Shown one piece after another: positions 9,455-26,002 of a DNA stretch of 64,000 nucleotides (its first letter is position 1; every line of letters starts with the position of its first letter). Made by a program: the position numbers and the translations under genes. Under the pieces are notes generated by a model, which did no database searches, was not told the DNA's origin, and saw only the letters and a list, made by a program, of their open reading frames with translations. This DNA is from Eledone cirrhosa (lineage: Eukaryota): positions 52,824,001-52,888,000 of the forward strand of contig OZ024741.1 of the NCBI GenBank assembly GCA_964016885.1, written 5' to 3'.

Positions 9455-10368
9455 GATATTTTAGTAAGTAAGTTAATTTTATAATTTTCTTATTTTACGG
9501 TCCTCATATTATTGTTCTGCAACCCCATGCATTGAACCACAATGTTACTAAGACAAAACCTATATATTTGCTAGCATTGATATGGATATGCATCTGTATG
9601 TATATATATGTTACTAGATATTAATTCTTTATAAGATATATATATATATATATATATATATATATATATATATATATATATATATATATATATATATATA
9701 TATATATATATATATATACATATATAAATTCAGCGAGAATCGTATTTGGGCGGGTAAAAATAAGTGAAACGCAATTTCCGAGTTATAGTGGCAAGCGCTC
9801 TATGGACCAAAAGAGACCAGACCAATAACCATAGGTTATAAAGGCCACACAAACTGAGACGGCGGTTAAGAAGCTATCAACCACCTACGCCCCCAAAACG
9901 AGGCAAACTAAACGGGTCAAACAAAATAAATGAAATATATATATATATATATATATATATATATATATATATATATATATATATATATATATATATGTTG
10001 AACAAATGAGCAACGATGGATGCTAGACACTGTACGGCTTAATTCGGGATGTTTGTTTACAAACACACCGAGAATTATAATAAATATTCGTGCATGTATG
10101 TATATATATAATATCTGTGCATGTATGTATATATATATACATACTACTGTACGTCTGTATACATATATGTATGTACGTATACATACTTATCTTTAAGTAA
10201 CAGCCGTACTAAGAGTGAGAAATGTAATTTCGTTTCATTTTTTCCGTTTATCGTTTTCGGTACCCCGGCCGATTAACTAACTCGATATGCAAATTAGGCT
10301 GTTCAGCGGTTAATATACATAAGGAAAGTATATACTTTCAGACGTTCACTCATCTAGCAGGAAGGTAT

Positions 10369-10411
10369 ACGTTGCTGACGATAGCTAATAAGCTTGAAAC
10401 TTGTACAGCGT
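10369..10411 (+). ncRNA. Hammerhead, family A copy 1 (stem III palindrome broken: cttg)
   Basis: acgttg CTGACGA t-agc/gct-t GAAA cttg TA cagcgt. Confidence 0.8.
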
Positions 10412-11011
10412 TCCATTGTCAGTGTTGAACAAATGAGCAACGATGGTTGCTAGACACTGTACGGCTTAATTCGGGATGTTTGTTTACAAACACACCGAGC
10501 ATTATAATAAATGTTCGGTGAATCCATACGTACATATATATATGTGTGCATGTATGTATATATATATACATACTACTGTACGTCTGTATACATATATGTA
10601 TGTACGTATACATACTTATATATATATAGATATGTTGAACAAATGAGCAACGATGGTTGCTAGACACTCTACGGCTTAATTCGGGATGTTTGTTTACAAA
10701 CACACCAAGAATTATAATAAATGCTCGGTGAATCCATACGTACATATATATATATATGTGCATGTATGTATATATATATATACATACTACTGTACGTCTG
10801 TATACATATTTGTATGTACGTATACATACTTATATTTAAGTAACAGCCGTACTAAGAGTGAGAAATGAAATTTCGTTTCATTTTTTCTTTTTATCGTTTT
10901 CGGTACCCCGGTCGATTAACTCACTCGATATGCAAATTAGGCTGCTCAACCGTTAATATGCACAAGGAAAGTATATACTTTCAGACGTTCAATCATCTGG
11001 CAGGAAGGTAT

Positions 11012-11054
11012 ACGTTGCTGACGATAGCTAATAAGCTTGAAACTAGTACAGCGT
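11012..11054 (+). ncRNA. Hammerhead, family A copy 2 (intact)
   Basis: acgttg CTGACGA tagctaataagctt GAAA ctag TA cagcgt; predicted cleavage after 11048 (GUA). Confidence 0.9.
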
Positions 11055-11668
11055 TCCATTGTCAGTGTTGAACAAATGAGCAACGATGGTTGCTAGACAC
11101 TGTACGGCTTAATTCGGGATGTTTGTTTACAAACACACCGAGCATTATAATAAATGTTCGGTGAATCAATACGTACATATATATATGTGTGCATGTATGT
11201 ATATATATATACATACTACTGTACGTTTGTATACATATATGTATGTACGTATACATACTTATATATATATATAGATATGTTGAACAAATGTGCAACGATG
11301 GTTGCTAGACATTGTACGGCTTAATTCGGGATGTTTGTTTACAAACACACCAAGAATTATAATAAATGTTCGGTGAATCCATACGTACATATATATATAT
11401 ATATATATATATATATGTGCATGTATGTATATATATATACATACTACTGTACGTCTGTATACATATTTGTATGTACGTATACATACTTATATTTAAGTAA
11501 CAGCCGTACTAAGAGTGAGAAATGAAATTTCGTTTCATTTTTTCTGTTTATCGTTTTCGGTACCCCGGTCGATTAACTCACTCGATATGCAAATTAGGCT
11601 GCTCAACCGTTAATATGCATAAGGAAAGTATATACTTTCAGACGTTCAATCATCTGGCAGGAAGATAT

Positions 11669-11711
11669 ACGTTGCTGACGATAGCTAATAAGCTTGAAAT
11701 TAGTAGAGGCT
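11669..11711 (+). ncRNA. Hammerhead, family A copy 3 (stems I and III mutated)
   Basis: Core intact but 3' side reads ttag TA gaggct. Confidence 0.6.
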
Positions 11712-12315
11712 TCCATTGTCAGTGTTGAACAAATGAGCAACGATGATTGCTAGACACTGTACGGCTCAATTCGGGATGTTTGTTTACAAAAACACCGAGC
11801 ATTATAATAAATGTTCGGTGAATCCCTACGTACATATATATATGTGTGCATGTATGTATATATATATATACATACTACTGTACGTCTGTATACATATATG
11901 TATGTACGTATACATACTTATATATATATATATATATGTTGAACAAATGAGCAACGATGGTTGCTAGACACTCTACGGCTTAATTCGGGATGTTTGTTTA
12001 CAAACACACTAAGAATTATAATAAATGTTTGGTGAATCCATACGTACATATATATATATATGTGCATGTATGTATATATATATATACATACTACTGTACG
12101 TCTGTATACATATATGTATGTACGTATACATACTTATCTTTAAGTAACAGCCGTACTAAGAGTGAGAAATGAAATTTCGTTTCATTTTTTCCGTTTATCG
12201 TTTTCGGTACCCCGGCCGATTAACTCACCCGATATGCAAATTAGGCTACTCAGCCGTTATTATGCATGAGGAAAGTATATACTTTCAGACGTTCAATCAT
12301 CTGGCAGGAAGGTAT

Positions 12316-24606: not shown

Positions 24607-24651
24607 AATATTGAACTAGTTTCGATGTTGTTACATCTCATCAGCAATATT
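24607..24651 (-). ncRNA. Hammerhead, family B inverted arm
   Basis: Reverse complement of 24830-24874. Confidence 0.85.
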
Positions 24652-24829
24652 TACCTATCTTCCGGCCTCTCTAGAGAATCGTAAAAGCACATATCGTTAT
24701 ATGCTTTTTCTATGAACCGGTACGTACTCACGCTCTATGCAAATTAGTCTGCCCACTACTAATTTTCATAGAAAAAGCATATAACGATATGTGCTTTTAC
24801 GATTCTCTAGAGAGGCCGGAAGATAGGTA

Positions 24830-24874
24830 AATATTGCTGATGAGATGTAACAACATCGAAACTAGTTCAATATT
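24830..24874 (+). ncRNA. Hammerhead, family B copy 1
   Basis: aatattg CTGATGA gatg/catc GAAA ctag TT caatatt (GUU triplet). Confidence 0.88.
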
Positions 24875-25295
24875 CCTTGTCTGGCTTTCTGGAGAATAGA
24901 GGAAAGGTGTTTCCTCAAAAACCAGTATGACTCTAAAAACCGGTTTGTCTGTGTGTTTACATACAGAATAGCTGGACACTCACAGTAAAGTGACCAGTGA
25001 AAAACTCGGTACATCTACATATGTATACGTGTGTGTATTCATATGCATACTAGTATTTCAGTATACATATGTGGATGTACATTTTTAACTTAATTGTTTA
25101 AGCGTCAGTCATACAAAAGTGAGTTACAAACGAAACGAAATTTAATTTCGTTTCGTTATTTGTTTTTATCGTCTCCGTTGAACCGGTACGTACTCACGCT
25201 CTATGCAAATTAGTCTGCCCACTACTAATTTTCATAGAAAAAGCATATAACGATATGTGCTTTTACGATTCTCTAGAGAGGCCGGAAGATAGGTA

Positions 25296-25340
25296 AATAT
25301 TGCTGATGAGATGTAACAACATCGAAACTAGTTCAATATT
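25296..25340 (+). ncRNA. Hammerhead, family B copy 2
   Basis: Identical to copy 1. Confidence 0.88.
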
Positions 25341-26002
25341 CCTTGTCTGGCTTTCTGGAGAATAGAGGAAAGGTGTTTCCTCAAAAACCAGTATGACTCT
25401 AAAAACCGGTTTGTCTGTGTGTTTACATACAGAATAGCTGGACACTCACAGTAAAGTGACCAGTGAAAAACTCGGTACATCTACATATGTATACGTGTGT
25501 GTATTCATATGCATACTAGTATTTCAGTATACATATGTGGATGTACATTTTTAACTTAATTGTTTAAGCGTCAGTCATACAAAAGTGAGTTACAAACGAA
25601 ACGAAATTTAATTTCGTTTCGTTATTTGTTTTTATATACATATATATATACATTTATATATACATATATATATATATGTATATATATATATATATATATA
25701 TATATATATATATATATATATATACATATATATATATATATATACAAGTAAAGCAGTTAAATTATAGAGAGGTTGAAAGAGGGAGACAGAGAGTGAGAGA
25801 GAGGGTGAGAGAGAGACGCCGTTCAACTTTATAATATTTGAGAGTGAAGAGCGACAGAGAGAGTAAAGCAGTTAAATTATAGAGAGGGGGAATGATCTAT
25901 TATAGAGAGAGGGAAGAGCGACGGAGAGAATAAAGCTAAGAAACTATAGGGAGGTGTGTAGGATACATACATAATACATACACACGACACTCAGCTTTAT
26001 AA

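Follow-up and report, generated by a model that had tools for sequence, protein, structure and literature searches.

A window of 64,000 nt from the genome of Eledone cirrhosa (contig OZ024741.1, positions 52,824,001 to 52,888,000 of the forward strand, in the 3.0 Gb assembly GCA_964016885.1), the whole stretch of DNA analyzed here, contains two loci of hammerhead ribozyme repeats, family A (9997-12566) and family B (24381-25635), both embedded in (TA)n. We put at roughly 80% the probability that A and B are non-coding, non-long terminal repeat (non-LTR) retrozymes that a Penelope-like reverse transcriptase (RT) has copied into (TA)n, following the cycle proposed below. A first-pass annotation of the window had suggested mobilization by Penelope-like elements (PLEs), and two fixed 3′ ends, head-to-head arms and (TA)n targets bear this out. 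With a third lineage, C, the families form a clan, and it is well supported that this clan is a real feature of a known kind, the animal non-LTR retrozymes.

Insertion ends beside helix H1

Copies of A and B end at two sites, s1 just past the inner hairpin of the H2 domain and s2 just ahead of the 5′ arm of helix H1; in a monomer counted from ribozyme to ribozyme, H1 sits between them. The 3′ ends fell within these two clusters in 101/122 cases for A and 38/40 for B, and the 5′ ends were spread. Among 76 head-to-head loci, 58 paired an arm ending at s1 with an arm ending at s2 (31/46 in A, 27/30 in B); the remainder comprised two s2/s2 loci, no s1/s1 locus and 16 with an end elsewhere. Copies of lineage C end at matching sites about 36 nt apart, and tail length is about 36-70 nt by lineage. 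An inverted, 5′-truncated arm and a microsatellite (TA)n target are present as well. This one-arm-per-site geometry is the Penelope ‘tail’ signature: for the element PAc, two internal sites of RT initiation and extension of both target strands have been described (PMC11167929), and PLE tails often stand at one end only (PMC8557442). The RT-priming scaffold imagined in the first-pass annotation gains from the same data, both 3′ ends mapping beside H1 in A, B and C.

In the window, the B locus consists of an inverted and a direct arm inserted head to head. The blocks of the A locus all begin at one truncation point (9997, 10634, 11279 and 11938), and its ribozymes lie 643-657 nt apart because an insertion of 1.45 units was repeated four times. 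A unit length of 466 nt holds for B, and the ~430 nt given for A is the genome-wide value. The features, including a likely small nuclear RNA (snRNA)-type promoter, are as follows.

9997..12566 (+): family A locus, a single-armed, 5′-truncated insertion of ~1.45 units that ends at site s2, present as four DNA-level repeats in (TA)n
10845-10852 with 11102-11109 (+): arms of helix H1 of A, 8/8 pairs, with compensatory changes in subfamilies, B and C
10857..10925 (+): H2 domain of A; the family 3′ end site s1 lies after 10894 in the multiloop and is unused by the window copy
10929..10982 (+): likely snRNA-type promoter of A, made up of the 12-mer (10929-10940) and a TATA-like box at 10972 within the H4 hairpin loop
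near 11002 (+): predicted transcription start of A, from spacing
11003..11063 (+): type I hammerhead of A, with further ones at 10360, 11660 and 12307; predicted cut after GUA at 11048
11079..11262 (+): A hairpins H6, H7 and H8 and the long H9, up to site s2 at about 11262
24381..24716 (−): inverted arm of family B, 5′-truncated, ending at s2 (24381); hammerhead core at 24644
24713..25635 (+): direct arm of family B, two 466-nt units ending at s1, then (TA)n
25107-25114 with 25391-25398 (+): arms of helix H1 of B, 8/8 pairs
25202..25264 (+): likely promoter of B; 12-mer at 25202-25213 (also at 24736), TATA-like word near 25245 in hairpin H4
near 25276 (+): predicted transcription start of B
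25284..25347 (+): type I hammerhead of B, with another at 24818; cleavage predicted after GUU at 25333

Homology to the pseudo-LTRs (pLTRs) of PLEs is shared by many vertebrate retrozymes (bioRxiv 10.64898/2026.07.22.740005), and A and B might likewise be ordinary pLTRs of autonomous PLEs, their hairpins being neutral fold-back leftovers. PLE fragments do occur in 9 of the fetched loci, but at varying distances from the ribozymes, and with one PLE protein as query no fixed junction to a PLE open reading frame (ORF) was found in these loci. The spread 5′ ends, the short ORFs and a retention of base pairs above permutation and neutral simulation (see below) also speak against this explanation, which we regard as improbable, contrary to the possibility raised at first pass. 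Descent from a pLTR may be compatible with the data, given a PLE search based on one protein query. Penelope-type copying of non-LTR retrozymes remains our preferred account; its weak points here are that no autonomous partner PLE was singled out with that one query and that the B locus L324, by a cruder test, is also s2/s2.

PLE-like remnants in the window share the two-ended geometry of A and B and differ from them in sequence. Those at 37200-40800, 14860-17900 and 33260-36030 have inverted ends and hammerhead-like cores, and one arm bears an additional tail of ~90-100 nt. A 618-aa frame in one such remnant (38304-40160, −) resembles RT/GIY-YIG clusters; it gave no Pfam match and no PDB match.

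Homologous families and their hammerheads

The A and B repeats are short, tandem, dispersed and present in high copy number. Family A has 1786 candidate places in the genome, of which 40 were scored, and two B ribozyme variants gave 933 and 5299 exact matches, many in tandem arrays. No LTRs were found, and the longest ATG-initiated ORFs in trimers measure only 68 aa (A) and 50 aa (B). Both repeat families of the first-pass annotation are confirmed; the ‘low sequence identity’ attributed to them amounts to 190/297 columns over the H1 domain, about 64%. Their local alignment scored 308.5, compared with a maximum of 135.5 in 500 shuffles, and the similarity is significant upstream of, within and downstream of the ribozyme, though not in the 46-nt stretch before the 3′ arm of H1 (22/1000). 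Judged by sequence similarity, A and B are plain homologues.

A joint pattern of the 12-mer and the hammerhead core matched 1221 places, several otherwise dissimilar families included, versus 0 with a reversed-pattern control. We inspected the first 100 matches listed per pattern; nine of the first 100 to this one belonged to lineage C, which is homologous to A with the 12-mer removed (0/500 shuffles) and weakly to B (8/500). A search for extra lineages with the H2 words of B and A returned, by eye, solely A- and B-type copies among the first 100 of 148 matches.

Each full unit of the window carries a type I hammerhead core with its stems. The shared bracket ggaag...tcc(a)ttgtc, the paired stems and the taaYaa loop reported around the ribozyme at first pass are all found in the computed folds of A and B, bracket and loop being parts of the hammerhead itself (stem I extension and loop II). 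In Rfam, the three B ribozymes matched HH9 with E = 1.4e-5 and 36.5 bits, short of the gathering score of 52, and no A ribozyme was among the 150 of 155 matches listed for the window. The A hammerhead has a palindromic stem III and is without the G10.1-C11.1 pair. This lack, and the finding that 8/9 Xenopus retrozyme dimers were uncleaved in vitro (bioRxiv 10.64898/2026.07.22.740005), count against self-cleavage as part of the cycle. Pairing of the palindromic stem III was not seen in the predicted dimer cofold, and action as a dimer therefore rests on the literature.

The fold outside the ribozyme and a candidate promoter

Helix H1, first described as an enclosing helix with two compensatory swaps, was found at the predicted positions in A and B with 8/8 pairs each and both swaps present. 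All eight pairs are kept in C too, and, as read from the sequences, swaps affect four of them in one or more lineages. Folds computed independently for A and B also recovered the second, fourth and seventh helical elements of the initial list, the second enclosing a shared tttatcgt and the seventh being a hairpin with a gtttaca apex. For the sixth, a helix around a hairpin, the inner hairpin is present in the folds; the outer helix is complementary (6/6 in A, 6/7 in B) but is missing from the lowest-energy folds, where its 5′ strand is taken up by the ribozyme-flanking stem, and in subfamily B2 this outer helix is disrupted. The B monomer folds with z = −11.7 (0/100 shuffles as stable), the A unit also folds far better than its shuffles, and a near-complete natural C copy folds into H1, H2, H4, H5, H6, H7 and H8, with further pair swaps.

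Covariation in A was assessed at pairs outside the ribozyme, using the majority sequences of five subfamilies (78 of 94 segments, after exclusion of clusters represented by fewer than three loci), a sequence-only alignment and 5000 permutations. Nine pairs had changed on both sides, compared with 1.7 expected, and 12 pairs were broken, compared with 25.6 expected (0/5000 permutations in either case). In 12 natural copies, H7/H8 was 95.6% paired, falling to 29-41% when the partner was slid; 5/17 pairs had changed on both sides, a count reached in 61/500 shuffles of a kind that ignores kinship. The B fold was nearer to the A fold than 150/150 simulated neutral descendants at 27% substitution, and at 15% substitution 0 and 5 of 150 descendants, by two measures, came as close. 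Two results tell against selection on a shared fold: A1 versus B1 outside the ribozyme, on a sequence-only alignment, gave 9 changes versus 6.85 expected (1074/5000, not significant), probably because indels shift registers, and the B subfamilies showed zero both-side changes outside the ribozyme. Selection on the fold thus has good support within A and also, by less rigorous evidence, across lineages. The earlier claim of selection beyond the ribozyme is upheld by the covariation test in A, and covariation between A and B was not recovered on the structure-blind alignment.

The 12-mer ‘tatgcaaattag’ is identical in A and B and fits a consensus at −77 to −79 of host U6 and U6atac genes. This consensus is present in 12/20 U6 loci (three unlinked types) and in the best of eight U6atac loci, with TATA at −30; the other 7/8 U6atac loci are without the upstream motif and resemble retrocopies. 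Upstream of U1 and U2 we found TCAGT at −56 to −58 and a TATA-like word near −30. Counted from the 12-mer, position +17 holds TCAG in A and C and CCAC in B; a TATA-like word follows in all three, at +43 to +46 in A and C. The TCAG-to-TATA distance in A, 26 nt, matches that of U1/U2, and from either landmark the predicted start falls near +74, at the base of hammerhead stem I. No column of the 12-mer varies among the five A subfamilies or from A1 to B1, in contrast to its partner strand, which does change. These motifs suggest that the 12-mer and the TATA-like box are likely an internal snRNA-type promoter, not only a hairpin, and the U1/U2-like spacing and the T-runs in the units favor polymerase II as the probable enzyme. 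There is precedent in newt satellite 2, which has an snRNA-type promoter (cited in PMC2220036) and is transcribed by polymerase II (PMC6765202).

The 12-mer could instead be kept as RNA structure or as a protein-binding site, with transcription supplied by host read-through. In A and B it forms base pairs within the predicted hairpin H3, and a 2020 review calls retrozymes seemingly promoterless (PMC7761336). Two variants of the 12-mer, each with three A-to-G (A>G) changes, are found repeatedly, one at 3 loci and the other at 5, in young arrays with shared flanking variants; an intact motif is therefore not required for spread. A promoter is further disfavored by the 8/20 U6 loci without the 12-mer, by its absence upstream of U1 (0/12) and U2 (0/9 distinct upstream regions), and by a 12-mer-to-TATA distance of 43-45 nt, about 4 nt shorter than the 47-49 nt of U6. 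A purely structural or protein-binding role nevertheless seems unlikely to us, given the constancy of the 12-mer opposite a changing partner strand, a local hairpin that differs in C and other families, the occurrence of the same word upstream of U6 and U6atac, outside the transcribed part, and the newt precedent. The first-pass annotation had treated the word as the opening of a hairpin: its sequence is indeed invariant, the local hairpin is lost in lineage C, and a promoter element is the better reading. We also considered a polymerase III transcript ending at a T-run near s1 as the sole template and rejected it, as the copies are multimeric and include the promoter region, with A>G changes in it.

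Other hammerhead-like families bear the same 12-mer (L062, L067, L069, L098-L104, L130 and L254); in some, the TATA-like word lies at +48/+49, the U6 spacing, and these may be of polymerase III type. Lineage C (L091, L094, L096, L097) has several degenerate tandem promoter-like words upstream of its 12-mer. The snRNA promoter words (U6/U6atac versus U1/U2) are directly readable at L141, L142, L144, L206, L214-L219 and L161-L163.

Template, proposed cycle and known systems

On the ribozyme strand, A>G changes made up 10/30 of array-fixed private variants in B, versus 13/174 of single-unit changes (p = 3e-4), and 10/36 in A, versus 55/465 (p = 0.016). In 52 B loci unselected for A>G, 18/46 distinct shared changes were A>G and six were T>C; 16/18 of these A>G changes lay at paired sites, compared with a base rate of 82/131. 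Copy L360, chosen by one forced A>G, carries 17 A>G and three T>C changes and nothing else at near-invariant sites. From these genomic traces, the excess is likely fossil ADAR editing of the template RNA. Weighing against that reading, A>G at A-U pairs is also what structural selection tolerates, and a long duplex between inverted arms could have been the editing substrate. G-U-tolerant selection could account for part of the excess, though hardly for L360.

We propose a cycle of five steps. First, the internal snRNA-type promoter ahead of the hammerhead would start read-through transcription, probably by polymerase II. Second, tandem hammerheads, probably acting as dimers, would cut the multimers into monomers that may be circularized, as in other retrozymes. 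Third, ADAR would edit the folded RNA, leaving the A>G fossils. Fourth, the enzyme, presumably the Penelope-like RT, would cut both target strands and prime one cDNA from s1 and the other from s2, either side of H1, giving head-to-head arms; the geometry is seen directly in the copies. Fifth, older long arrays would expand later at the DNA level, as their higher-order patterns suggest.

In one two-armed array, 20/20 units on both arms carry the same three A>G changes. Such array-wide sharing fits rolling-circle copying of one monomer without proving it, and we lean slightly toward a circular template. A different template would alter only the second and fifth steps: PLEs would copy a linear, multimeric read-through RNA, and arrays would come from donor arrays and DNA-level expansion, with no circle. 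The same three-A>G variant is found at two other loci, and a donor array therefore also fits the uniform 20-unit array; edited variants are common to several loci, so a donor locus can yield uniform arrays. The units of arrays L371, L353 and L332 are heterogeneous, with unit-to-unit A>G differences in L371, and higher-order patterns appear in L353, L332 and a 70-unit array, all of which count against single-circle copying. PAc, too, inserts in vitro without need of hammerhead cleavage (PMC11167929). Conversely, young two-armed arrays are uniform over both arms, with locus-private variants in each unit, and circles predominate in coral, mussel and axolotl (PMC7229834). We consider the linear template a serious alternative, if short of even odds.

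Within L371, the unit-to-unit A>G differences occur in one arm. In the L316-L317 array, one A>G change occupies 6/10 units of one arm, showing a period of three, and the other arm lacks it.

A fuller version of the preferred cycle, which we offer tentatively, is a self-promoted circular RNA parasite. Its monomer would carry its own snRNA promoter, a ribozyme and a covarying scaffold placing two Penelope RT subunits at two starts on a single ADAR-edited circle; two-way rolling-circle copying would write the edits of one molecule into two-armed arrays, and edited lineages would keep spreading.

Elsewhere in the window, small fold-back elements with hammerhead-like cores and no 12-mer upstream lie at 3701-3838, 14137-14523 and 14685. 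A broken long interspersed nuclear element with an RVT_1 match and an upstream ORF (27531-32756, −) is one we take, from its motifs, to be of the L1/Tx1 type. A 31-bp satellite of about 720 copies with higher-order repeats fills 41520-64000, and a tRNA-like match (40.9 bits) at 5212-5282 is possibly the head of a short interspersed nuclear element.

The clan offers a compact test substrate, a 430-470-nt RNA with two start sites, each mapped with a precision of a few bases, a helix between them that covaries across three lineages and a candidate promoter, in which editing marks serve as template barcodes. Its near-strict one-arm-per-site rule constrains PLE priming on both target strands, which is relevant to RT-based gene writing and circular RNA expression, and the host snRNA promoter words may aid guide-RNA expression in cephalopods.

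Our literature search, with most subscription papers outside it, found no account of the clan, of a covarying scaffold at retrozyme RT starts or of a cephalopod U6 promoter. The accessible part of PMC13282606 does not mention ribozymes. The main texts of PMC7229834 and bioRxiv 10.64898/2026.07.22.740005, as far as accessible, name no cephalopod, and their supplements may list cephalopod families; in both, transcription and copying of animal retrozymes are assumed and the mechanism is called open.

Plant LTR retrozymes have a similar branched fold despite low sequence identity, a likeness of predicted folds given without a covariation test in the accessible source; they differ from the clan in their type III ribozyme, LTRs and Gypsy partners (PMC7761336). 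Newt satellite 2 (as cited in PMC2220036) is similar in combining a hammerhead repeat with an internal snRNA-type promoter. Unlike it, the candidate promoter described here joins a U6/U6atac word to U1/U2-like spacing. The promoter layout of newt satellite 2, from work by Coats, Zhang and Epstein in 1994, is reportedly an octamer plus a proximal sequence element (PSE).

Penelope-like elements, PAc among them, likewise insert into AT-rich or microsatellite sequence and have two internal RT starts, a tail confined to one end and an inverted, 5′-truncated arm (PMC11167929; PMC8557442), as well as a hammerhead with palindromic stem III (PMC4209133). Unlike them, the clan has no ORF, its tail is about 36-70 nt and both arms can be long multimers. 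The closest likeness is to metazoan non-LTR retrozymes, which are likewise arranged in tandem, non-coding and a few hundred nt per unit, carry a type I hammerhead in every unit and have a highly self-paired predicted fold and proposed PLE mobilization (PMC7229834; bioRxiv 10.64898/2026.07.22.740005). Unlike those described in the accessible texts, the clan comprises three diverged lineages with one covarying fold, fixed RT start sites beside one helix, the s1/s2 arm rule and A-to-G fossils; what it adds is the placement of two start sites at a helix conserved in all three lineages.

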